Of a DNA stretch of 64,000 bases, positions 1 to 17,277 are shown piece after piece (positions within the stretch are counted from its first letter, which is position 1; every line of letters starts with the position of its first letter). Origin of the DNA: a virus (lineage: Duplodnaviria > Caudoviricetes); the IMG/VR virus record IMGVR_UViG_3300015607_004925, positions 1 through 64,000 of that record. One strand, given 5' to 3'. The notes beneath the pieces are model-generated. The model was not told the DNA's origin. It searched no databases and saw nothing but the letters and a program-made list of their open reading frames with translations. The translations under genes were made by a program, and so were the position numbers.

Positions 1-69
1 CCGAGAAGCAGGACGGCAAGCTCAGCGAGCTGTCGGAGAAGGAGCTGAAGAAGAAGATCGCCGAGCTGG

Positions 70-321
70 ATGCCTAGCCGGCGATACCGGAGCGAGCCGC
101 ATCGCGTGAGCGAGCCTGTACAGCTCACTCTCCGCGACGAGCGCGGCGTCGTTCATCACGGCTGGCAGAACCTCGAGGGCGCGATGCGCATGGGCTGCTC
201 GTACTACTCGCTCGAGTGGTCCGATGCGCGTGGCGAGCCCCTCACCTGCGTCTGGTGTCTCGCCGGCTACCATCCGTGGCTGGCGTGGGGGCCGGGCGCG
301 CCTCGAAAGCAGGAGATATGA
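70..321 (+). CDS. HC3-type zinc-finger paralogue 1
   Basis: RDERGVVH ... MGC ... LTCVWC; start uncertain. Confidence 0.7.
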   Translation: MPSRRYRSEPHRVSEPVQLTLRDERGVVHHGWQNLEGAMRMGCSYYSLEWSDARGEPLTCVWCLAGYHPWLAWGPGAPRKQEI

Positions 322-623
322 GCGACGAGGAAGAGCATCTCGCCAACCAGGCCTCGTGGACCGTCCGGGATTCGGACGGCGTCGACCACCGGGCCGTGCA
401 GCAGTCCTCAGGCAACATCACGTGGGTCATCACCGCGTGCCCGTGGTGGCAGACCCACAACGTGTCCGGCCAGCGCGCGCCGGTGCGGATTGACCGCGTG
501 CCGACGTGTCTCGAGTGCACGATGCTCGAGATCAAGACGGTCTCCGAGCCGAAGTGCACGCATTGCGGGCTGGGCAAGGCCATGCACAACGGCCACATGC
601 ACCAGTACGAGGCCGGGGCGTGA
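318..623 (+). CDS. HC3-type zinc-finger paralogue 2 with extra CxxC/His tail
   Basis: AGGAG SD, ATGA overlap; RDSDGVDH ... TAC ... PTCLEC; CTHCG..H..H. Confidence 0.8.
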   Translation: MSDEEEHLANQASWTVRDSDGVDHRAVQQSSGNITWVITACPWWQTHNVSGQRAPVRIDRVPTCLECTMLEIKTVSEPKCTHCGLGKAMHNGHMHQYEAGA

Positions 624-871
624 AGGTCCAGCGCGTCGTTCTCCTGACGCAGGAGTACGCCGTGCTGCACCTACGCCCGTCGTGGTGGGCGCGGCTGCGA
701 GGCGCGCGCGACCTCGTCGTCGAGCTGGTGTATGAAGACCGGCGCTGGATCAGCAAGTTCACGCGCACGCCGCTCAGCCACATGAACCACAGCGGCATCA
801 TCACGGCGGCGATGGAGGGCTACCCGCTCGAGGATGCCCCGCTTCCCGCTGCCCGCCTTCTCGAGGAATGA
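620..871 (+). CDS. hypothetical protein
   Basis: GTGA overlap with upstream stop, high GC3. Confidence 0.65.
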   Translation: MKVQRVVLLTQEYAVLHLRPSWWARLRGARDLVVELVYEDRRWISKFTRTPLSHMNHSGIITAAMEGYPLEDAPLPAARLLEE

Positions 872-872
872 C

Positions 873-1148
873 ATGCAGGACCTGACCAAGCTGAAGATCC
901 CCGAGGGCTGGACCCTCGTGCGCGCCGAGGGGTTCGGCGACCAGGCGTACCTGTCGACGCCTCCGCCCATGCGCTACACCGCGACCGTCGACTTCGCGCT
1001 CCGCGGCTTCCGCTCGGGCATGGTCGTGTCAGGCCGCCTCCACGGCGACGACATCGTCAAGAAGACCAAGCGCAAGAAGTTCGAGGGTCGCGGGTGGGCG
1101 CAGGCGTTAGTCGATCACGCCGCGGATCACCTACGAGGCCTTCTGTGA
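873..1148 (+). CDS. hypothetical protein
   Basis: GAGGA SD, high GC3. Confidence 0.7.
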   Translation: MQDLTKLKIPEGWTLVRAEGFGDQAYLSTPPPMRYTATVDFALRGFRSGMVVSGRLHGDDIVKKTKRKKFEGRGWAQALVDHAADHLRGLL

Positions 1149-1444
1149 CCGTGCGCCCGAAGGTTGACTTCTGGGTGTGTCGCGACACGAACGGTGTCCT
1201 TCACGCCGCGAAGATCGAGCGCTTCTTCGACGGCCACAACCAGCTCGTGCAGTTGCAGGGCTGCACGGGTTGCCGCCCACGTGTGCAGTCGTGCTCGGTG
1301 CCCCAGGGCGACTGGCACGGCAAGAAGCTGCCGCCGCTGTCGATCGGCGACAGCAACGGGCGCAACGGCATCACGCTCATCGAGTACTGGGTGCGTGAGG
1401 CGCCGACATGCGTGACGTGCGTGACCATAGCGAGGCCGACGTGA
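1145..1444 (+). CDS. HC3-type zinc-finger paralogue 3
   Basis: GTGA overlap; RDTNGVLH ... TGC ... PTCVTC. Confidence 0.8.
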   Translation: MTVRPKVDFWVCRDTNGVLHAAKIERFFDGHNQLVQLQGCTGCRPRVQSCSVPQGDWHGKKLPPLSIGDSNGRNGITLIEYWVREAPTCVTCVTIARPT

Positions 1445-1836
1445 CGCTCGTCGTACGCGACCACGAAGGTGTGTGGCACGAGATCTACAACAAGACCGAG
1501 ATCGCCCAGCTACGTAGCAGCCAACGTGACTGGGTTGATAACTGGCAGGTGCGCACGCTCTGCTGCAAGGACGAGGAGCCCGAGTTTCTGGGGGTCAGTG
1601 TTCTGCGTGCTACCATCGACGACGGCGCGCACACGGGACACGCGCCGACGTGCGTGCGTTGTGCGGCGATGCCGTGCGATCACGGCATCACGTTCGACGA
1701 GACCCGCGCTCGCGGCCTGACCGCGAACGAGATCCGCTCGCGCTGGCCTCGCCTCGAGGGCACGTGCAAGAAGGGCTGTGGCTACCACGGCGTCGCCTAC
1801 GCCAGCTTCATCCACTATGTCTGCGGTGACTGGTGA
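1441..1836 (+). CDS. HC3-type zinc-finger paralogue 4 with second Cys/His domain
   Basis: GTGA overlap; RDHEGVWH ... TLCC ... PTCVRC; CDHG...CKKGCG. Confidence 0.8.
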   Translation: MTLVVRDHEGVWHEIYNKTEIAQLRSSQRDWVDNWQVRTLCCKDEEPEFLGVSVLRATIDDGAHTGHAPTCVRCAAMPCDHGITFDETRARGLTANEIRSRWPRLEGTCKKGCGYHGVAYASFIHYVCGDW

Positions 1837-2090
1837 ACCCGCGCGTCGTCTTCGAGCACGACGAGAGCGAAGAGCCCGGGCTGCTCCACGCCGTTCGTCG
1901 TGCGTGGTCGACAAATGCCGACGATCCCGACACGGGCAGCGCCTACCAGACGATGTGCGGCGAGATGTTGTACTCGGTGGCGCTGTACCCCAGTCGCAAG
2001 CGCGGCATCCCAACGTGCCTGCGCTGCACGCTGGCGCTCGTCGAGGAGGCGTTTCTCGAGCCCCCATCCGTGGAGACCATGTTCCCATGA
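1833..2090 (+). CDS. HC3-type zinc-finger paralogue 5
   Basis: EEPGLLH ... TMCG ... PTCLRC. Confidence 0.8.
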   Translation: MNPRVVFEHDESEEPGLLHAVRRAWSTNADDPDTGSAYQTMCGEMLYSVALYPSRKRGIPTCLRCTLALVEEAFLEPPSVETMFP

Positions 2091-2377
2091 AGCAGCGAAC
2101 GATCCGACAGCTGCTGATACACGGCAGCGACACGTCCGTCCTCATTCACCTCGTGCGGGCGACGTCGAACCGCGGTTACAACGGGACCGACTACGACACG
2201 TACTGCGGACTGTGCCTGACGGCGGGCGAGAAGTGGGCCATGCCGCAGCACGACTTCGTCGACTGTGTGCGCTGTCTCGGCACGGCGAAGTCGTGCGTGA
2301 AGTGTCGCGAGCTGCTCGGGTGGGCGCAGTTGCCATCCGACGTTCCGGAGCGCTGTGAAGCCTGCGCCGATCCATGA
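2087..2377 (+). CDS. HC3-type zinc-finger paralogue 6 with extra C4 ribbon
   Basis: ATGA overlap; VLIH ... TYCG ... VDCVRC; CVKC...CEAC. Confidence 0.75.
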   Translation: MKQRTIRQLLIHGSDTSVLIHLVRATSNRGYNGTDYDTYCGLCLTAGEKWAMPQHDFVDCVRCLGTAKSCVKCRELLGWAQLPSDVPERCEACADP

Positions 2378-2540
2378 CGTGCCGCGTGCTGGAACACTCT
2401 GGCAGATCTCGTACTGCGCGCGCTGCGGTGCTGCCTACGACAACAAGGACCCCTGCGTGCCCGATGGGCGCGAGGCCGAGCGCCGCGCGCCGGGCTACGA
2501 CCAGGACGGGCTCAACGACAAGACCCGAAGGAGATGCTGA
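2355..2540 (+). CDS. small Cys-containing hypothetical protein
   Basis: CARCG motif; fills gap in gene run. Confidence 0.55.
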   Translation: MKPAPIHDVPRAGTLWQISYCARCGAAYDNKDPCVPDGREAERRAPGYDQDGLNDKTRRRC

Positions 2541-2818
2541 TGTTCGACATGGAGCGCATGCTCTACCCGATGATCGTCGAGGCGCACGGTTCGCGCTGGA
2601 TCGCGCTGTATCGATCGCAGACGACCGACACGCACCACACGTACATCGCGGTGCCCGCCATGCCCGAGGGCAACACTTCGCTCGAGCTGCCGCAGCCGTG
2701 CTCGCTCATCGCCGTGCCGCTCACCGCGCACGAGTTGGAGGGTGTGCGCGTGCGTAAGGCGCGTGAGGCCGCCGAGGAGGCGCGCGAGGCGGCGAAGAAG
2801 GAGAAGAAGGGTGTCTGA
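2534..2818 (+). CDS. hypothetical protein
   Basis: AAGGAG SD, high GC3. Confidence 0.7.
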   Translation: MLMFDMERMLYPMIVEAHGSRWIALYRSQTTDTHHTYIAVPAMPEGNTSLELPQPCSLIAVPLTAHELEGVRVRKAREAAEEAREAAKKEKKGV

Positions 2819-3122
2819 CGTCGACAAGGGCCCCTGCGGCAACGAGGACTGCGACGCCTGCTACCCGCTGCCGCGCTGGAAGGTCACGACCGTCACCGTG
2901 CGCCGCATCGCGCACGAGCGCGAGCTGAAGGCGGCGACGGCCGAGGACGCGCTGCGCGAGTACGCCGGCGGCACGGCGTGGCCCCGCTCGTACGACGAGC
3001 GTACGCTCGAGGTGATCGAGCGCGAGGAGCCCGTGGCCGTGCAGATCACCGACGAGGAGACGCTCAAGTTCCACCGCGAGCACACCTGCTGGCACCGTCT
3101 GCGCGCGCGAGGCGAGCCGTGA
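2811..3122 (+). CDS. hypothetical protein (N-terminal CxxxxCxxC)
   Basis: coupled to upstream gene, high GC3. Confidence 0.65.
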   Translation: MSDVDKGPCGNEDCDACYPLPRWKVTTVTVRRIAHERELKAATAEDALREYAGGTAWPRSYDERTLEVIEREEPVAVQITDEETLKFHREHTCWHRLRARGEP

Positions 3123-3370
3123 GCCACCGTCCCGTCACCCACGCTGAGGCCAGGCGCATCGCCAAGCGGTTCGGTGTCAGGCTGCCGCGTGTCGGCTACG
3201 AGATGAGCCTGGGCGGCGGCATGTGGCTCGCGAGCACGGGCCACGCCCAGTTCGGCTGGTTCGAGTCGACGGCGAAGACGCCCTTCGAGGTTCGGTGCCG
3301 GTGCTACGACGCCTTGCTGCCTAGCGAGCCGTGCAGACATGTGGCAACGTGCCCCGTGTTGGAAAGATAA
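3119..3370 (+). CDS. hypothetical protein, C-terminal Cys cluster
   Basis: GTGA overlap. Confidence 0.6.
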   Translation: MSHRPVTHAEARRIAKRFGVRLPRVGYEMSLGGGMWLASTGHAQFGWFESTAKTPFEVRCRCYDALLPSEPCRHVATCPVLER

Positions 3371-3372
3371 AC

Positions 3373-3735
3373 ATGGTTCGTAAGACCAAGAGCAAGAAGG
3401 GCCATGCCGTCGTCGAGCGCGTGGCGCAACGCAACATCCGCGAGCGCGTGTGCGCGCAGAAGGGCTGCAAGTTCTTTGGCGAGCCCGCGCGACAGGGCGT
3501 CTGCTTTGATGCCAAGGGCGAAGTGGCCGTGTGGGACAAGCTTGCGGCGCACGAGAAGGCGTTGCTCGACGAGCTGAAACACATGAAGAAACGGGAGGGC
3601 AAGGCCTACGGACGCGCGCTCGAGGCCTACTACGTCACGGCGATGATGGCCTGGCAACTAGTGCTCGACGAATGTGTCCGCTTGCGACGTGATGTCGCGC
3701 TGCTGCGGGCAAAGAAACTGCGCAGGCGTCGATGA
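3373..3735 (+). CDS. basic hypothetical protein
   Basis: GGAAAG SD, ORF fit. Confidence 0.65.
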   Translation: MVRKTKSKKGHAVVERVAQRNIRERVCAQKGCKFFGEPARQGVCFDAKGEVAVWDKLAAHEKALLDELKHMKKREGKAYGRALEAYYVTAMMAWQLVLDECVRLRRDVALLRAKKLRRRR

Positions 3736-3941
3736 AGGGCTTCCCTGTCCATCCCGACGTCGAAAAGGCCATCCAGCAGATCGACGCCGCGTTGTTCAGC
3801 GGCGACACGTTCGACGACCCCGCGAACCGCGCGCACCTGAAGGGCTACGTCGAGCGGTGGCTGCTTCGCATCGAAGAGGACACGAAGCACGCCGCGAAGG
3901 TGCGGCCAGAGGAGGACCTATGGGCGGAATCATCGGACTGA
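3732..3941 (+). CDS. hypothetical protein
   Basis: ATGA overlap. Confidence 0.65.
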   Translation: MKGFPVHPDVEKAIQQIDAALFSGDTFDDPANRAHLKGYVERWLLRIEEDTKHAAKVRPEEDLWAESSD

Positions 3942-4483
3942 CCATTCGTTTGGAATTGGGGCGCGAGTGGCGCGGCTCGTGTTGGACCAACATCTTGCCG
4001 GAGGGTTTGTTCGCCGCTCCGTTCTATGTCGACCTCGACTCGAGCAAGCAGCACACCAGCGCGTGGCTGGAGAAGCTCGTCGCTCGTCGCAAGGTCGACC
4101 CGGAGTTGGAGGAGGTCTGGGGCGGCTGGGACAAGCTTGCACCGATTGAATACGGCCTAGTCGTCGTCGACTACGTGACCAACACGCTCGTGTCGTGTCA
4201 GGGCTATAGCGGCGTCGACTACGTCTACTGCCACGAATACGATACCGACAAGATGGAGAAGTACGCCGCCCTCGAGAAGGCAGGGCTGCTCATCGTTCCG
4301 AGCAGGCGCGACTTCCCCGCGCATTGGAAGGCCGCCGACATCAAGCTGCCGTTCGCCAACACGATCATCGGTGATTACGATCGTTGTGACGAAATTCTCT
4401 ACGGGTGGTGCGACCGCCACTTCACGCTGACCGACGAGGAACGCGATGCCTGGATGGAGTGGTTTGCGGCGCGCGATGAGTGA
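3920..4483 (+). CDS. hypothetical protein
   Basis: GGAGG SD before ATG 3920. Confidence 0.7.
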   Translation: MGGIIGLTIRLELGREWRGSCWTNILPEGLFAAPFYVDLDSSKQHTSAWLEKLVARRKVDPELEEVWGGWDKLAPIEYGLVVVDYVTNTLVSCQGYSGVDYVYCHEYDTDKMEKYAALEKAGLLIVPSRRDFPAHWKAADIKLPFANTIIGDYDRCDEILYGWCDRHFTLTDEERDAWMEWFAARDE

Positions 4484-4697
4484 GGTCGACTACCGTGACC
4501 CCTGGGATGTCGTGCACTGCACGCAGCGTACCGACTGCAGCTGGGACGGTGTCATCGACTACGTGACGCTTTGCGGGGTCACGTACAGCATGCACGTGAG
4601 CCAGGGCATGGTCGAGAAAGGGCAGATGCCGACGTGTCTGCTTTGCGTGATAGCTTCAAGCGTCGCTTCGAACACTACGCCCTCACCGAGTACGTGA
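4476..4697 (+). CDS. HC3-type zinc-finger paralogue 7
   Basis: RDPWDVVH ... TLCG ... PTCLLC. Confidence 0.8.
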   Translation: MSEVDYRDPWDVVHCTQRTDCSWDGVIDYVTLCGVTYSMHVSQGMVEKGQMPTCLLCVIASSVASNTTPSPST

Positions 4698-4849
4698 CCG
4701 GTCACGACGGCCTGTGGCATGTCACCCGGCCCAACGGCACGATCATCTGCTCGATGGGTCGCGCACCGTCGCCGATCTACGTCAGCGACGGTAAGGTGTT
4801 CGCGACGTGCGTCGAGTGCCTCGTACGGCTGTGGAGGCGGACCGCATGA
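4694..4849 (+). CDS. HC3-type zinc-finger paralogue 8 (minimal, 51 aa)
   Basis: GTGA overlap; GHDGLWH ... IIC ... ATCVEC. Confidence 0.75.
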   Translation: MTGHDGLWHVTRPNGTIICSMGRAPSPIYVSDGKVFATCVECLVRLWRRTA

Positions 4850-5205
4850 TCAAGAGCTGGAAGGACCCGGACACCGATCTCGTACATGTGATCGCCTGCG
4901 AGGAAGGCAAGGAGCACAAGCCCGACGCGCACGAGAGCGCCATTCTGCACACGTTGTCGACCGACGAGATCGTGAAGCGCTTCTTCCGGCGGGTCGCCAT
5001 GCGCTGCGGCATGCGCGTGCAGCTCGACAGCGACGAGTTCATCATGCCGCACGGCGAGGCGATGTTGCAGTCGCCCCCGCCGATCCTGCGCCCGTGGTTG
5101 ACTGGCCGCGACGCGCCGACGTGCGTGGTGTGTGCGGTCGTCAAGCCCTCGGAGCCCGTGCGCAGCGTCTGGGGAAGCTGGGGAAGCAAGCGCCGCGGCG
5201 CATGA
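4846..5205 (+). CDS. HC3-type zinc-finger paralogue 9
   Basis: GGAGG SD; KDPDTDLVH ... MRCG ... PTCVVC. Confidence 0.8.
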   Translation: MIKSWKDPDTDLVHVIACEEGKEHKPDAHESAILHTLSTDEIVKRFFRRVAMRCGMRVQLDSDEFIMPHGEAMLQSPPPILRPWLTGRDAPTCVVCAVVKPSEPVRSVWGSWGSKRRGA

Positions 5206-5238
5206 TTGTGTGGTAAACACAGGAGGATCGTGTTTGTG

Positions 5239-5700
5239 ATGAAAGCCTACCTCGTACACAACGGGGACGCCGTCGAGTTTCGCGAGAGCGTGCTCGTGTA
5301 CCACTACACCGCGGAGGCCGCGAAGGAGCTGAGGCGGAACTGTCTCACGTCGACGAACACCTGGGAGGAGACCGAGGTCGAGCGCGCGCCCGCGCACGAC
5401 GCACGCTGCGTGACGATGATCGAGCCCGCGCAGGAGGAGGACGTGGAGTACCTGCGCGAGAAGGGCTGGCGCTACGAGGACGAGCAGACGTGCTACGCGT
5501 GCGGGCTCGCTGCGTTCGGTCAGGAGGCGTTCGCGGTCTGCAACGAGTGCGGCCACTGTAAGATGTGCGGATGCGATACGGGTTGCGACGAGGACGGTCC
5601 CTGTCCGCAGTCGGAGGGGTGGTCGTACGAAGAAGTGCGGAAGCCGAGGTCGTCGCCCTCGCCCGATGCGCCGCCGCCGACGCCGGAGGATGCCACGTGA
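5239..5700 (+). CDS. Cys-rich hypothetical protein
   Basis: CYACG..CNECGHCKMCGC. Confidence 0.7.
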   Translation: MKAYLVHNGDAVEFRESVLVYHYTAEAAKELRRNCLTSTNTWEETEVERAPAHDARCVTMIEPAQEEDVEYLREKGWRYEDEQTCYACGLAAFGQEAFAVCNECGHCKMCGCDTGCDEDGPCPQSEGWSYEEVRKPRSSPSPDAPPPTPEDAT

Positions 5701-6113
5701 CCTGCTGGGTTGCGCACTTCGTCGACGACGACGGGCTCACACACCTCGCGGACGACCACTACGGCGCGCAGATGGACGGCTGGCGTCCGACGCTGGCGTT
5801 CACGTGCTGCGGTCGCGCGGTCGTCCGGGACGGCGTACGTGCCAACCCCGGCACCTACGTCTCCTGCGGAGTCCCGCTGACGTGCGTACGCTGCGTCGCA
5901 GGCGTGCGCGACGGCCACTTGCGCCGGCGTGCGCTGAAGAACGCGATGTACATGGAGATGTACGGCGCGCTGCCGAACAAGACCCTCGGTCCATACGCGA
6001 AGGATGACGTCGCGATGGTGCTCGCGCTGCTCTATCCGCGCTCGGTCCTGCGCAAGTGCGCGCGGCTCGCTGCGGTCTTCTACGTGAAGGCGTCGGAGAC
6101 GTCCCATGGATGA
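5697..6113 (+). CDS. HC3-type zinc-finger paralogue 10
   Basis: GGAGG SD; VDDDGLTH ... TCCG ... LTCVRC. Confidence 0.8.
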   Translation: MTCWVAHFVDDDGLTHLADDHYGAQMDGWRPTLAFTCCGRAVVRDGVRANPGTYVSCGVPLTCVRCVAGVRDGHLRRRALKNAMYMEMYGALPNKTLGPYAKDDVAMVLALLYPRSVLRKCARLAAVFYVKASETSHG

Positions 6114-6318
6114 ACACATGCCTTGGATGTGGCGCGATTCCAAGCGCATCACGCACCGCATGTCCAAGCAGCTTGCCAAGCTCGCGTACGTCACGCAGGT
6201 CTCGTACATCACCTGGTGCGGTGTCGAGGTCACCGTCGACGACGTGAACCCGGCCACGATGTGCCACCGAGGCACGCCGACGTGCGTCCGCTGCGCGGTG
6301 GCCAAGAGGTCTGTATGA
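6106..6318 (+). CDS. HC3-type zinc-finger paralogue 11
   Basis: WRDSKRITH ... TWCG ... PTCVRC. Confidence 0.8.
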   Translation: MDEHMPWMWRDSKRITHRMSKQLAKLAYVTQVSYITWCGVEVTVDDVNPATMCHRGTPTCVRCAVAKRSV

Positions 6319-6715
6319 CGCAGATTGCCCGTCGCGCGGGGTGGCACGAGCGCCGGCGGCTTCGCGTCTTCGCCGCGAAGGCGCCTGAGGGTGATGGCGC
6401 CCCGCAGGACGGCCTCGACGATGCCTACACCATCGCCGGCTACGATGATTACTACCCGTACGTTTGCGATGAGGACTGGGCGGTGCCTGTCATGTCGTCG
6501 ATGGTGTTCGAGGCCGACGGGCTCGTGCACGTCTCGCGCCCCAAGGACCCGACGTCAGCATGCGGCGAGGCGGGGAACTGGCCGATTCCATCGATGGGCT
6601 CGACCGACGAGGCGATCGCGTATGCGCGCGAGCACCGCGGGGACTTTCGCACCGTCACGTGTGTGGGTGCATCGCGCGGGCGCCGTTCTGGGGCATTCCG
6701 TGGGTCGCGCCGTGA
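6315..6715 (+). pseudogene. HC3-type zinc-finger paralogue 12 with 1-nt frameshift (or assembly indel)
   Basis: EADGLVH ... SACG ... VTCVG; adding one G to the run at 6665-6667 gives TCVGCIARAPFWGIPWVAP* ending 6715, in GTGA overlap with the next gene. Confidence 0.65.
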
Positions 6716-7080
6716 CGTCCAAGACCACGCACCGACGTCAGCGAAATCGCGCCGCCACGCAGGCGAGGATCCTTGAAGCCGCGCGCGGCTCGCGCACGAG
6801 CGGACGCGCGAAGCTGTGTCACTACCAATGGGCCGATGCGGGGTTGGTCCACCGGGTGGTAGAGGACCTGCGGAGCTTCTACGTCGACGTCCGAGGGTTC
6901 AACGAGTGGATGTCGCGCTCGGTGTGGGCAACCATCTGCGGTTACGTCATCGCAATCGAGTCGTCGAAGGTCATGCCGTCAAGACGCGTGCCGACGTGTA
7001 TCCGATGCGTCGTCGGGCTCGCGCACGCGCGCGTCGGGCTCTCTTGGCCATGGGATGGGAGCAAGCCACGTGTCGCATGA
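6712..7080 (+). CDS. HC3-type zinc-finger paralogue 13
   Basis: WADAGLVH ... TICG ... PTCIRC. Confidence 0.75.
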   Translation: MTSKTTHRRQRNRAATQARILEAARGSRTSGRAKLCHYQWADAGLVHRVVEDLRSFYVDVRGFNEWMSRSVWATICGYVIAIESSKVMPSRRVPTCIRCVVGLAHARVGLSWPWDGSKPRVA

Positions 7081-7339
7081 CGGGTTCTGGCGCGTGTGCG
7101 ATGACGACGGGCTCGTGCACCACGCGCTGACCATCTCGCACACGATCCTCCTCAGCGACAACAACGTGGACTACGAGGACGCGCCGAGGACGATCTGCGA
7201 TCGCGACCCCGGCGACTGGCCGGAGGCCTCGCCCGACGTGCCCACGACCTGCCTCGCGTGCTACGTCGCGTGGCTGAAGCTCGAGCGCGCCGCGATCACG
7301 TTCCTCGAGTCCCACACAAGGAGCTTGCGTGCGGGGTGA
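7055..7339 (+). CDS. HC3-type zinc-finger paralogue 14
   Basis: CDDDGLVH ... TICD ... TTCLAC; start may be 7070. Confidence 0.75.
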   Translation: MGASHVSHDGFWRVCDDDGLVHHALTISHTILLSDNNVDYEDAPRTICDRDPGDWPEASPDVPTTCLACYVAWLKLERAAITFLESHTRSLRAG

Positions 7340-7589
7340 GAAGATCGAGTTCGTCCCTGAGCTGCTCGTCGTCCTCATCATGAATGACGCGCACGTGCAT
7401 CGATCGAACGGTGTGCGGATCGCGCAAGGGGCGCTTGTCCACCGCCTCGCGCGTTACGACCGCCAGCGTGCGGTCTGGGAATTCTACTGCGAGGACGCGT
7501 TCTCTGGCGATGCACACGTACAGTACGAGTCGTTCGACCCTGTGACCTGTGTAACGTGCCTCACGAGGATGCCATGGTTCAGACGCTGA
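7329..7589 (+). CDS. HC3-type zinc-finger paralogue 15
   Basis: QGALVH ... FYCE ... VTCVTC. Confidence 0.75.
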   Translation: MRGEKIEFVPELLVVLIMNDAHVHRSNGVRIAQGALVHRLARYDRQRAVWEFYCEDAFSGDAHVQYESFDPVTCVTCLTRMPWFRR

Positions 7590-8224
7590 TCAGTGTCTTC
7601 TTGGCCGTCGCTGCCGTCCTTGCATTGCGTTGGCGTTACGTGCGCGCGACCATTGCAGCCAACCACCAAAATCGACGTTGGTGGTGGGAACGTCGCAAGC
7701 GGGATCGCGACGATCTGCTCGAGGCGGCACACGACGCTGTTCTGCGCGGCAAGTTCCGTCATCGGCGCCTCGACGAGTCGGCGTGGTCCTACGCCAAGGC
7801 GTTCGACCGTTGGGTCTCGCAGCAACTCAAGACCGCGCCTACCGTGCAGTGGAGCAAGCCGTTTGCGCGTGCCACACGGCCGCTCCCGCTGCCGAAGCGG
7901 CCGCGCCGTCTCACCGTGCGTTGGCGTAAGTCGGCCGTGCAGGCCGTGCCGCTGTTTCAGTTGTTGAAGGCGCCCCGCAGTTCTACGACACCCGCACCTG
8001 TCTCGTCGGGGTGTACGTGGTCGTCGGCGCAGTACTATTGGTGGGCTGCCGAGCATGGGGGACTTGTTCACCGTGCGGCGGTGTTGATGCACGACCACGG
8101 CGGGTCATTCGTGTTGCGTTGCGACCACGACGTACTGCTCGAGCCGATACACGTCAGTCAGTACCCCGATGGCGACGGTCCGGTGTTGACCTGTGTCCAC
8201 TGCTTCGGGATGGCGCGTACGTGA
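7574..8224 (+). CDS. membrane-anchored HC3-type zinc-finger paralogue 16
   Basis: N-terminal hydrophobic helix; EHGGLVH ... LRCD ... LTCVHC. Confidence 0.75.
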   Translation: MVQTLISVFLAVAAVLALRWRYVRATIAANHQNRRWWWERRKRDRDDLLEAAHDAVLRGKFRHRRLDESAWSYAKAFDRWVSQQLKTAPTVQWSKPFARATRPLPLPKRPRRLTVRWRKSAVQAVPLFQLLKAPRSSTTPAPVSSGCTWSSAQYYWWAAEHGGLVHRAAVLMHDHGGSFVLRCDHDVLLEPIHVSQYPDGDGPVLTCVHCFGMART

Positions 8225-8254
8225 AGGACTTTGTCCTGTGTCAAGGAGGTACGC

Positions 8255-8476
8255 ATGGCGTCGGAGGACGACCTCTGGGTGTTGCATCACGTCAAGGACG
8301 TGAGCGTGACCGGCATGGCCTCGTACCGCTACCGCGGTCCTGGTGACGTCGTGCATCGCGCGGTATGGCGGGACGCGAAGTGGTTGGCGTGTTGCGGTGA
8401 GAAGGTCGTCGATACGCTGCAAGAGGGCGATGTCGGTGCGGTCACGTGTGTGCGGTGTCTTGGGGCGGGTGCGTGA
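8255..8476 (+). CDS. HC3-type zinc-finger paralogue 17
   Basis: AAGGAGG SD; GPGDVVH ... ACCG ... VTCVRC. Confidence 0.8.
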   Translation: MASEDDLWVLHHVKDVSVTGMASYRYRGPGDVVHRAVWRDAKWLACCGEKVVDTLQEGDVGAVTCVRCLGAGA

Positions 8477-8700
8477 ACTGGGCAGGCTTCTGGCACCACG
8501 CCGACGGGCTCGTGTATGTCATGGGTACGTACCGCGCGTGCGAGGGCCGTCGTCACATGTTTTCTGAGTGCCGCATCGCGCTCGCGTGCATTCCGACGTA
8601 CGCCGACCACATGTTCCTCGACCCGAACACGCGCGCCCCGTTCCCGACGTGCGTTGCATGTTGGCACGCGTCGAACTTCGGCAGCTACGCCCCGCGATGA
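8473..8700 (+). CDS. HC3-type zinc-finger paralogue 18 (His replaced by Tyr)
   Basis: GTGA overlap; HADGLVY ... SEC ... PTCVAC. Confidence 0.75.
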   Translation: MNWAGFWHHADGLVYVMGTYRACEGRRHMFSECRIALACIPTYADHMFLDPNTRAPFPTCVACWHASNFGSYAPR

Positions 8701-8738
8701 GCGGTGCGTAGCTGTGTCTGGCGGTTTTTTTTTTGGCC
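8701..8738. terminator. probable terminator between convergent units
   Basis: T10 run directly after the last array gene; hairpin weak. Confidence 0.4.
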
Positions 8739-8739
8739 C

Positions 8740-9345
8740 TCACGGGTGGTCGATGTCGAGGACTCCGTCACGCAGCCACCCGTGCAAGCGCTGCGGGCTG
8801 CCGATGCCGATGGACGGCGTGCACGTGATGCGGGGCGGGACGCCGGTGCGCGTCCAGCCCGGCCCGTTGGTCGCCGGCCCGTCGATCCACCAGTCACCTT
8901 CGGGCGTCTTGAGGACGAGGCTCTTGCCGTCGGACCCGCGCGTGTTGCCGTACCACCAGGCGTCGTACATGGCGCCAGCCGGCGCCTTCGCGATCGTGTA
9001 GAGGTCGCTGGTGCCGACGCGCAGGTAGAGGGTCTCGTGGTTGTGCTGCCACTTGTCGTCGGGCACGAACACGTAGCCGCACGCGCACGCGTGCGGCCAC
9101 CGCGCGTCGAGCTTGGTCACGTCCGTGACCGCCGGGTTGTGGTCGTAGCGCCCCTCGCTCGGGTCGCGCTGGACGATCTCGGTGTCAATCTCCGCCGAGT
9201 GGTAGTCCCACTTGACCGGCGAGTGGCCGGGGTAAGGCGCGCGCATCGACGTGCACGTTGGCGCGCCCTCGGAACTGTAGCGCCGGAACGAGACTTGGAC
9301 GAGCTGGGTCGGCACGAGCCAGAAGCACGTGATTTTCGATGGCAT
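8740..9345 (-). CDS. hypothetical protein with DUF6527-like C-terminus
   Basis: WTRTGVPPRITCTPSI...HGWLRDG; ATG 6 nt after CTATAAT. Confidence 0.6.
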   Translation of the reverse strand: MPSKITCFWLVPTQLVQVSFRRYSSEGAPTCTSMRAPYPGHSPVKWDYHSAEIDTEIVQRDPSEGRYDHNPAVTDVTKLDARWPHACACGYVFVPDDKWQHNHETLYLRVGTSDLYTIAKAPAGAMYDAWWYGNTRGSDGKSLVLKTPEGDWWIDGPATNGPGWTRTGVPPRITCTPSIGIGSPQRLHGWLRDGVLDIDHP

Positions 9346-9352
9346 TGTTGAA

Positions 9353-9844
9353 TTATAGAGGCCGTCCTGGAAACACATCGTCGGGATAGTTTCCACCTGC
9401 CTCACGCACCGCTTCGACAATGTCTGGCAGCAGATATCGATTGCCGCGGCGGTGTTCGTTCCGTACTTGGCAGTTGCAGCACAGCACGCGAAAACGCGTG
9501 AGGTCTTCCTCGTCTCGCAGCATCGCGTAGATTTGCGTCGCTGTTTTCACGCGTCCGCTCTTCTTTTGTTCGTGTGGAAGAAGTCCGTCGATGTGGTCGA
9601 TCGTCAGGACACGATAGTCCGTTTCAGGGCACGTCGCGCAGCGCAGTCCTCCAAGGAGTTTCATGACCTCAATCCGTGCTCGGTGCGTCGACCGCTTGAT
9701 GCGGAACTTGTAGAGGTCCGGGTCATCGTAGTACTTGCGTTTGACCTCACGGTTGTATTCGAGGCGGTGCCGTTCACAGAACGTCTTGTTGCGTTCGGAC
9801 ACAGGGCGCGGACATCGCTTGCACTTGATTCGTGTTTTGGGCAT
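9353..9844 (-). CDS. HNH homing-type endonuclease
   Basis: CATC..LTIDHIDG ... RVLCCNC; more AT-rich than flanks. Confidence 0.85.
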   Translation of the reverse strand: MPKTRIKCKRCPRPVSERNKTFCERHRLEYNREVKRKYYDDPDLYKFRIKRSTHRARIEVMKLLGGLRCATCPETDYRVLTIDHIDGLLPHEQKKSGRVKTATQIYAMLRDEEDLTRFRVLCCNCQVRNEHRRGNRYLLPDIVEAVREAGGNYPDDVFPGRPL

Positions 9845-16983: not shown

Positions 16984-17035
16984 CCTGTGCGCGGCGTGCT
17001 GATGTCCAGGTGGGTGGGTTCGAACCATCGTATCG

Positions 17036-17108
17036 AGAGCCCGGCGGGGATCGAACCCGCGACCAACGGTTTCATCACTCCGCTGCTCTGCCGCTGAGCT
17101 ACAGGCTC
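17036..17108 (-). tRNA. aberrant tRNA-like gene (GAT in an 8-nt anticodon loop)
   Basis: GAGCCTG/CGGGCTC acceptor, TAGCTCAG..GAGC D-arm, GGTTCGATCCC T-arm; anticodon stem has a mismatch. Confidence 0.7.
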
Positions 17109-17113
17109 GTTCG

Positions 17114-17186
17114 CGGACGCCACGGGGCTCGAACCCGTCACCCCCAGGCCATCAACCTGGTCGCTGCGCCCGGCAGCTCGGCGTCC
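17114..17186 (-). tRNA. tRNA-Ile(GAT)-like gene with non-canonical D-arm
   Basis: GGACGCC/GGCGTCC acceptor; CCAGG-TTGATGG-CCTGG; GGTTCGAGCCC; U8 absent. Confidence 0.7.
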
Positions 17187-17205
17187 ATGTCTCGCTTGTA
17201 TCACG

Positions 17206-17277
17206 GGGGGACGGATGGGGTCGAACCACCGACGCAGGATCTTGCGATCCACCGCTCTACCACTGAGCTACGTCCCC
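17206..17277 (-). tRNA. aberrant tRNA-like gene (GCA; anticodon arm refolds as GGATC-GCAA-GATCC)
   Basis: GGGGACG/CGTCCCC acceptor, canonical D-arm and T-arm. Confidence 0.7.

Follow-up and report, generated by a model that had tools for sequence, protein, structure and literature searches.

Why would a phage carry several dozen diverged copies of one small gene? The question is raised by IMG/VR record IMGVR_UViG_3300015607_004925 (Duplodnaviria; Caudoviricetes), a viral genome of 184,915 bp with 66.5% G+C, of which the first 64 kb are the window. The original prediction, made from the letters of the window, had picked out 18 small genes between positions 70 and 8,700, named here by their start positions, that share a histidine, a lone cysteine and a CxxC pair on a variable background. 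We found that the genome encodes 67 copies of this family, nearly all in its non-structural arm. The most likely reading, which we hold with middling confidence, is that the arm supplies a repertoire of specialised small putative binders.

Size of the family and its place in the genome

To detect members, we built a hidden Markov model (HMM), seeded by a loose regular expression and iterated over all stop-to-stop open reading frames (ORFs) of the whole genome with a cut-off of E < 1e-3. It gave 67 matches on the plus strand and none on the minus strand; the regular expression alone gave 47 and none. An independent profile, built solely from 117 metagenomic proteins of a public database, matched 65 places in the genome, all on the plus strand. 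The strand asymmetry, together with the independent profile, excludes a chance origin of the pattern. About seven additional weak members lie elsewhere in the genome.

Sixty-three of the 67 copies occupy an arm that runs from 149.6 kb through the junction of the record to 8.5 kb, in sub-arrays of 14, 17, 3, 11, 2 and 16, and four single copies lie outside it (genome 99.6, 131.2, 140.0 and 143.4 kb). The ends of the record overlap by only 22 bp (the 'direct terminal repeat') and the corresponding JGI contig, of 184,893 bp, begins elsewhere on the circle, so we take the record to be an assembled circle, in which window positions 1–8,700 continue genome 149–185 kb and the array crosses the junction. 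The window array is the tail of this larger array, and the 18 genes understate the size of the family. The phage-specific expansion that had been proposed is thus larger than claimed, taking about one-tenth of the 185-kb genome and most genes of the non-structural arm.

All 18 of the listed starts open ORFs that carry the scaffold described. Sixteen match the HMM at E values from 1.4e-4 to 1.2e-13, and these are the 16 of the 67 matches that fall in the window (52–8,467); the other two, 6315 and 8473, are decayed members. The run at 1–8,700 holds 28 genes, 18 of them from the family, mostly joined by 4-nt start/stop overlaps, which bears out the translational coupling first described. JGI gene calls agree with 16 of the 18 genes; the JGI start lies a little further downstream in 70 and 6106 and further upstream in 4694. 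They lack 4476 and 6712 because both overlap neighbouring calls.

Three copies in the genome are decayed. In gene 6315 a missing base removes the last cysteine; reading through it with an X restores TCVxC and raises the score from 13.7 to 23.8 bits, and the restored frame ends at a TGA stop (6713–6715) that overlaps the GTG start at 6712. Gene 8473 has tyrosine for the histidine ligand. The third copy, at genome 160,648–161,067 on the plus strand (L001:11888-12067), has arginine for the first cysteine of the CxxC (P-T-R-V-P-C), a motif that is intact (P-T-C-V-P-C) in a database relative, P0006.

A fixed ligand scaffold with variable loops

All 67 copies have the histidine and the first cysteine (Cys1), and 66 of them have each of the second and third cysteines (Cys2, Cys3). 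The core has a median length of 61 residues, with a first inter-ligand loop of 9–40 residues and a second of 16–46. Beyond the ligands, few columns are conserved: D-x-x-G-[VL]-V before the histidine, T-x before and G after Cys1, and, at the CxxC, a preceding [PV]-T and an internal [VL]. The description of a fixed His-Cys-CxxC scaffold with unrelated loops therefore stands, as does that of add-on modules: a CxxC/His tail (318), a Cys/His-rich tail (1441) and a CxxC...CxxC module (2087), all three kept in a close relative, L049, as well as a hydrophobic helix (7574) and a basic leader (6712). The isoelectric points of the 67 cores range widely, with 17 acidic, 25 neutral and 25 basic, a spread that argues for varied partners.

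AlphaFold2 models of two proteins (6106 and 8255), computed from an alignment of the 67 paralogues, show the same order of strands and helices, consistent with a shared fold. In both, a long strand begins at the histidine, its partner in the hairpin stops just ahead of Cys1, and a short C-terminal helix is capped by the CxxC. Because this hairpin geometry makes the histidine and Cys1 cross-strand neighbours, a single four-ligand site is plausible, and each domain probably holds one metal, most likely zinc. A classical zinc ribbon or treble clef draws its first two ligands from a CxxC knuckle on a beta-hairpin; judged from predicted secondary structure, the first two ligands here are a lone histidine and a lone cysteine, 9–40 residues apart on neighbouring strands, and the sole CxxC forms the second ligand pair, at the N-terminus of a helix.

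Solved structures and viral models offered no counterpart: a sequence-profile search of PDB chains gave no match for the family, and Foldseek against PDB and BFVD returned nothing at E < 0.1. In a wide VIA-align comparison the best match, to PWWP/Tudor-like (SH3-type) barrels, reached a Z of 4.2 and is uninformative.

Relationship to known families and expansions

Besides PDB, we found no match to the family in PHROGs, NCBIfam, plasmids or 50,697 isolate phage records, and none above threshold in Pfam; the family is not described in the literature searched. The nearest named family is zf-HC3 (PF16827), an uncharacterised family of short His-Cys3 zinc fingers that, to our knowledge, is not a multi-copy phage family. 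The suggested resemblance to zf-HC3 holds as a distant likeness. The two share the ligand order (His, Cys, CxxC) and a similar domain size (about 60 residues), and among ESM Atlas clusters those closest in language-model features (0.92) and in predicted shape (template modelling (TM) score 0.66) carry zf-HC3 in part, with PF16827 present in 23% of the members of the cluster of the best shape match. The resemblance does not extend to membership: the gathering score of 25 is reached by no phage copy (best 20.5 bits), only two of the 18 genes in the window give an E ≤ 1 (best 3.9e-4), and one of the 117 database relatives an E < 0.01. At best, the family would be a distant relative of zf-HC3. The zf-HC3-bearing Atlas clusters come mainly from Actinomycetota. 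A likeness to DUF3039 (PF11238), also suggested at the outset, was not borne out, as none of the 18 window proteins matched it at E ≤ 1.

The closest precedent found in the literature is Bacillus phage G, where about 35 copies of a zinc ribbon form a lineage-specific expansion that was called unprecedented and for which roles as transcription factors or structural DNA-binding proteins were suggested (Iyer et al. 2021, PMC7824862). In both cases a large phage carries tens of copies of one small zinc-binding domain (here predicted). However, the phage G domain is a four-Cys ribbon whereas ours is His-Cys3, the copy number here is about double, and the expansion here is common to several uncultured lineages. 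In the phage G genome (JN638751, 497,513 bp) the family profile finds nothing at E ≤ 0.1; by this one-way sequence test the two expansions appear analogous, not homologous.

In large eukaryotic DNA viruses (poxviruses, giant viruses), multigene families of ankyrin, BTB/kelch and MORN proteins are generally read as host-interaction repertoires. They resemble the present family in combining a fixed scaffold with variable surfaces, in occupying a variable genome arm and in differing in copy number between relatives. The folds and hosts are unrelated, and some members there have known targets, whereas none here do.

Distribution among uncultured viruses

We searched 1.84 billion cluster representatives exhaustively with the profile and obtained 421 matches at E ≤ 1e-3. 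Among the matches listed, most are of 55–100 residues, a small number contain two domains, and a handful are false positives from repeat proteins. Those that we followed to their origin are unnamed metagenomic proteins, and a word-indexed homologue search likewise returned only those.

Using the RNA polymerase subunit of the phage as a marker, we located related virus records. A profile search of these records found 52 copies in G003 (187,862 bp, complete), 32 in G010, 21 in G005, 19 in G002, 15 in G001 and 4 in G004; the family HMM, run on the fetched parts of the genomes, found 56 in G003, 38 in G005, 28 in G002 and 22 in G001. Relatives at about 80% polymerase identity carry between 4 and 56 copies. 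In four kin whose polymerase is 33–51% identical, one of them 95% complete, the profile search found no copies. Copy number among kin thus varies from 0 to 67, which answers the proposal to look for such variation in the rest of the genome and in related phages.

Two further contigs, from other uncultured lineages, carry the family. L053 (1–10557), a 59% GC Logan contig from SRR22000234, belongs to a different phage lineage; its 10.5 kb give 26 HMM matches with a distinctive signature, V-T-C-L-E-C-L-A, and include a protein (P0001) with two family domains. On a 49% GC contig a two-domain family fusion (L052:1076-1750) adjoins a YpsA-family gene, so that the domain is found well beyond the high-GC clade. 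Other searches were negative. A tblastn search with two members returned nothing against phages and, against plasmids, only chance matches inside a catalase gene; a related-locus search of viral contigs with one member gave no match; and genome contigs scanned with a PTCVRC pattern and, in search of the host, a DFP/aldolase-like phage gene held no relative, with one 10-residue chance match in Chryseobacterium.

Duplication, selection and turnover

Identity between paralogues never exceeds 43% across the 67 copies. The best paralogue of a copy lies within two family neighbours in 11 cases, against 4.0 expected, and 17 of 2000 permutations reach 11; this excess of near neighbours suggests that the family grew by old local duplication. 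DNA repeats in window 1–9,000 consist only of codons of the shared motif, which indicates that there have been no recent duplications. Variation by a diversity-generating retroelement was considered and rejected, given these repeats and the absence of an RVT_1 match in the genome.

The polymerase is about 80% identical between this genome and each of G001, G002, G003 and G005, but in each of these four genomes only 1–4 of the 67 copies can be matched to a counterpart (≥50 bits). Among G001, G002 and G005, whose polymerases are 84–88% identical to one another, 13–14 of 22 copies are common, at 44–75% identity. Non-family genes of the arm are 30–60% identical between relatives, save for a conserved 815-residue protein (82%). 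By these comparisons the whole arm evolves rapidly, with the family at the fast end.

A closer relative, L049, is a mosaic: the synonymous divergence (dS) is 0.03 in the 815-residue gene and 0.14–0.59 in six family genes. For these six genes the ratio of non-synonymous to synonymous divergence (dN/dS, or omega) is 0.12–0.68, below 1 in each. The original prediction had called for a comparison of loops with core; pooled over the six genes, omega rises from 0.23 in the scaffold core to 0.38 in loops and 0.61 in tails, so loops and core are both under purifying selection. Judged from these ratios, the copies are under purifying selection and constraint relaxes outwards from the core. The original prediction read the copies as plausible anti-defence or host-takeover effectors; with the loops under purifying selection in this one genome pair and six genes, stable specialised binders are a better fit than a continuing arms race.

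Gene content differs between relatives. L049 has an extra 155-residue gene (L049:3830-4297) between the orthologues of 1441 and 1833. In L008 (254–481) the orthologue of 6106 is followed directly by that of 8255, an adjacency which implies that L008 lacks the five members in between (6318 to 8255). As read from these differences, repertoires change by gain and loss of gene blocks.

Candidate transcription signals

An exact TATAAT occurs at nine sites in the whole genome, all outside the arrays. A T comes next in all nine, and a C stands in front of eight (cCTATAATt). The sites are at window 9357(-), 9893(+), 27632(+), 33004(-), 34818(-), 43540(-) and 53778(-) and genome 71502(-) and 98155(-); seven of the nine lie in the head/tail region, and one stands ahead of the RNA polymerase gene at 71.5 kb. 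We regard cCTATAATt as a candidate class of promoter that would be read either by the phage polymerase or by that of the host. Since the arm is without cCTATAATt, which elsewhere precedes nine genes, the family genes are probably expressed as a separate, likely early, class.

A palindrome, GTTTAY-N3-RTAAAC, is present at 15 sites when one mismatch is allowed, where shuffled sequences would give 0.45. Most sites lie 5–30 nt ahead of start codons, and two lie between sub-arrays. Exact sites are at window 17442, 23867 and 29344 and genome 111710, 140885, 155640 and 161290, with eight more at one mismatch. The palindrome is a candidate operator or second promoter class. In window 1–9,600 we found no sigma-70-like promoters or terminators above chance.

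Proposed role and alternative explanations

We propose that each gene encodes a mini-domain, about 55 residues long, that a single metal ion (most likely zinc) would hold together through four ligands: a histidine where a beta-strand begins, a cysteine just past the next strand and the cysteines of a T-C-x-x-C motif, which lies at the N-terminal end of a short C-terminal helix. The residues D-x-x-G-[VL]-V-H, T-x-C-G and [PV]-T-C-[VL]-x-C would fix the fold, while the two inter-ligand loops, the tails and the added modules would give each copy a surface of its own. The co-oriented, translationally coupled genes fill the non-structural arm from 149 kb across the junction to window 8.7 kb. Old local duplications gave rise to the family, purifying selection keeps each copy, and gain and loss of blocks alter the repertoire between relatives. 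Each copy would then most likely act as a specialised small binder with a macromolecular target of its own, from host or phage, as the phage takes over the cell.

Several points weigh against this proposal. Metal binding and the single site are deduced from ligand invariance and secondary-structure geometry, and early timing from where the genes lie and from one motif being missing there. The loops carry no signature of positive selection or an arms race (omega 0.38 for one genome pair and six genes), and the low identity of non-family neighbours means that divergence is not unique to the family.

The main rival, which we consider rather unlikely though worth serious attention, is that the copies are sequence-specific nucleic-acid binders, either transcription factors or structural DNA- or RNA-binding proteins, that work with the phage's multisubunit RNA polymerase. 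The phage does encode a fused beta/beta' subunit, phages with their own polymerases have been suggested to deploy their own factors, and it is such a role that was proposed for the phage G zinc ribbons (Iyer et al. 2021, PMC7824862). The 25 basic cores would suit it, but the 17 acidic and 25 neutral ones would not, and the scaffold columns lack a conserved basic patch. Some of the SH3/Tudor/PWWP-like barrels that appear as weak fold neighbours bind nucleic acids, but all fold matches are at Z ≤ 4.2 and uninformative. Moreover, 67 regulators are far too many for about 300 genes, and one member has a membrane-type helix. It is improbable, on the other hand, that the expansion is mostly neutral or selfish, with small genes duplicating easily in a permissive arm and being tolerated without a specific function for each. 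The relaxed constraint in tails and loops (omega 0.61 and 0.38), the three decayed copies and the range of 0 to 67 copies among kin speak for this reading; yet ligands stay intact in 66–67 of the 67 copies despite identities of at most 43%, omega is below 1 in every gene tested, recent duplicates are lacking and orthologues are kept across relatives.

A bulk metal sink or metal-delivery system that alters the zinc economy of the host seems very improbable. It would account for the many identical ligand sets and nothing else, as it needs neither constrained paralogue-specific loops (omega 0.38) nor add-on modules conserved between relatives. We give almost no credence to an artefact in which high-GC open frames that are not real genes share a short motif by chance. 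High-GC DNA does contain many long spurious ORFs, but the HMM matches are 67 to 0 between strands, the independent profile finds 65, JGI calls agree, dN is below dS between orthologues and the paralogue alignment gives confident AlphaFold models; the strand asymmetry and dN/dS refute this reading.

If the copies are specific binders, as we infer, the arm would be a natural library of minimal metal-stabilised scaffolds and a tractable route to host targets. We put forward a more specific version tentatively, as possible but short of likely: high-GC phages of about 150–190 kb, joined by at least one lineage unrelated to them (59% GC), may keep libraries in which dozens of mini-binders, every one with a single zinc, are directed at different host proteins (for example in defence or housekeeping). 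The libraries would serve as a broad pre-formed repertoire of counter-measures reshuffled by block gain and loss, and would add a new class to the effector scaffolds of phages. The family merits a name and a profile, with which hundreds of 'hypothetical' small phage genes could be annotated.

Genes of the window run

The genes of the run and their individual features are collected in Table 1.

Table 1. Genes at window positions 70–8,700. E values and bits are from the family HMM unless stated; L049, L008 and G003 are related sequences; pLDDT, predicted local distance difference test; pTM, predicted TM score.
Positions	Strand	Feature	Evidence and remarks
70..321	+	Family member	E 1.1e-12; ligands H, C, C-x2-C; JGI start 106; L049 orthologue 96% identical, dN/dS 0.12
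318..623	+	Family member with extra C-terminal CxxC...H-rich tail	E 2.5e-13; tail kept in L049; ATGA overlap with preceding gene
620..1148	+	Two non-family genes (620–871, 873–1148)	JGI calls; no Pfam match; conserved in L049, dN/dS 0.40 and 0.11
1145..1444	+	Family member with long second loop (46 residues from Cys1 to Cys2)	E 1.4e-4; L049 orthologue 75% identical
1441..1836	+	Family member with 57-residue Cys/His-rich C-terminal extension	E 6e-10; extension kept in L049
1833..2090	+	Family member with best, yet subthreshold, zf-HC3 match	E 8.7e-11; PF16827 20.5 bits against cut-off of 25 (at 1893–2045)
2087..2377	+	Family member with DC for TC before CxxC and C-terminal CxxC...CxxC module	E 3.3e-11; module kept in L049
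2355..4483	+	Block of seven small non-family genes	JGI calls; no Pfam match, no family HMM match
4476..4697	+	Family member absent from JGI calls	E 1e-11; neighbouring call overlaps
4694..4849	+	Minimal family member, 51 residues from coupled GTG	E 1e-11; JGI start 4634
4846..5205	+	Family member, both loops long (40 and 39 residues)	E 2.6e-10
5206..5700	+	Cys-rich non-family gene, 164 residues	JGI call; no Pfam match; 36%-identical counterpart in G003
5697..6113	+	Family member with 72-residue C-terminal extension	E 5.1e-10
6106..6318	+	Family member, modelled	E 1.2e-13; AlphaFold2 pLDDT 84.1, pTM 0.68; orthologue P0003 in database
6315..6776	+	Family member, frameshifted	1-nt deletion in G run at about 6666–6668; intact frame would end at 6715
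6712..7080	+	Family member with basic N-terminal leader, absent from JGI calls	E 1.9e-11
7055..7339	+	Family member	E 2.1e-9
7329..7589	+	Family member	E 2.2e-8
7574..8224	+	Family domain at C-terminus of 216-residue protein with hydrophobic N-terminal helix	E 4.2e-11; Kyte-Doolittle 2.05, residues 1–19
8255..8476	+	Family member, second modelled	E 1.3e-9; AlphaFold2 pLDDT 77.3; orthologue in L008
8473..8700	+	Degenerate member, last gene of run, His ligand to Tyr (GLVY for GLVH)	14.3 bits, E 0.0064; convergent minus-strand gene starts at 8740

Other features of the phage genome

The genome also encodes a head-maturation protease, a baseplate hub and the RNA polymerase subunit used as a marker. 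The last lies at genome 71,511–75,917 on the minus strand (L010:7511-11917) and is a single chain with Rpb2 (beta) domains and domains of the N-terminal half of Rpb1 (beta'). It is about 345 residues longer in G003 and G005 (1812–1815 against 1469 residues; L027, L032), and the extra residues could be an intein or an inserted domain.

Megablast of window 1–9,000 and 30–50 kb against isolate phages gave no match, and a WhiB match that might have hinted at the host falls below its cut-off. Converging on the end of the array is a minus-strand gene (window 8740–9420) with a DUF6527 match barely above threshold (23.7 against 23.6 bits). An Rfam scan matched only tRNAs. A tRNA-Met(CAT), found by Rfam (52 bits) and ARAGORN, lies at genome 152,907–152,982 on the minus strand (L001:3907-3982), between two family genes inside the array. 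At window 17035–17277, also on the minus strand, ARAGORN predicts a tRNA-like cluster of one tRNA-Ile(GAT) and two tRNAs with abnormal anticodon loops, and Rfam confirms two of the three.

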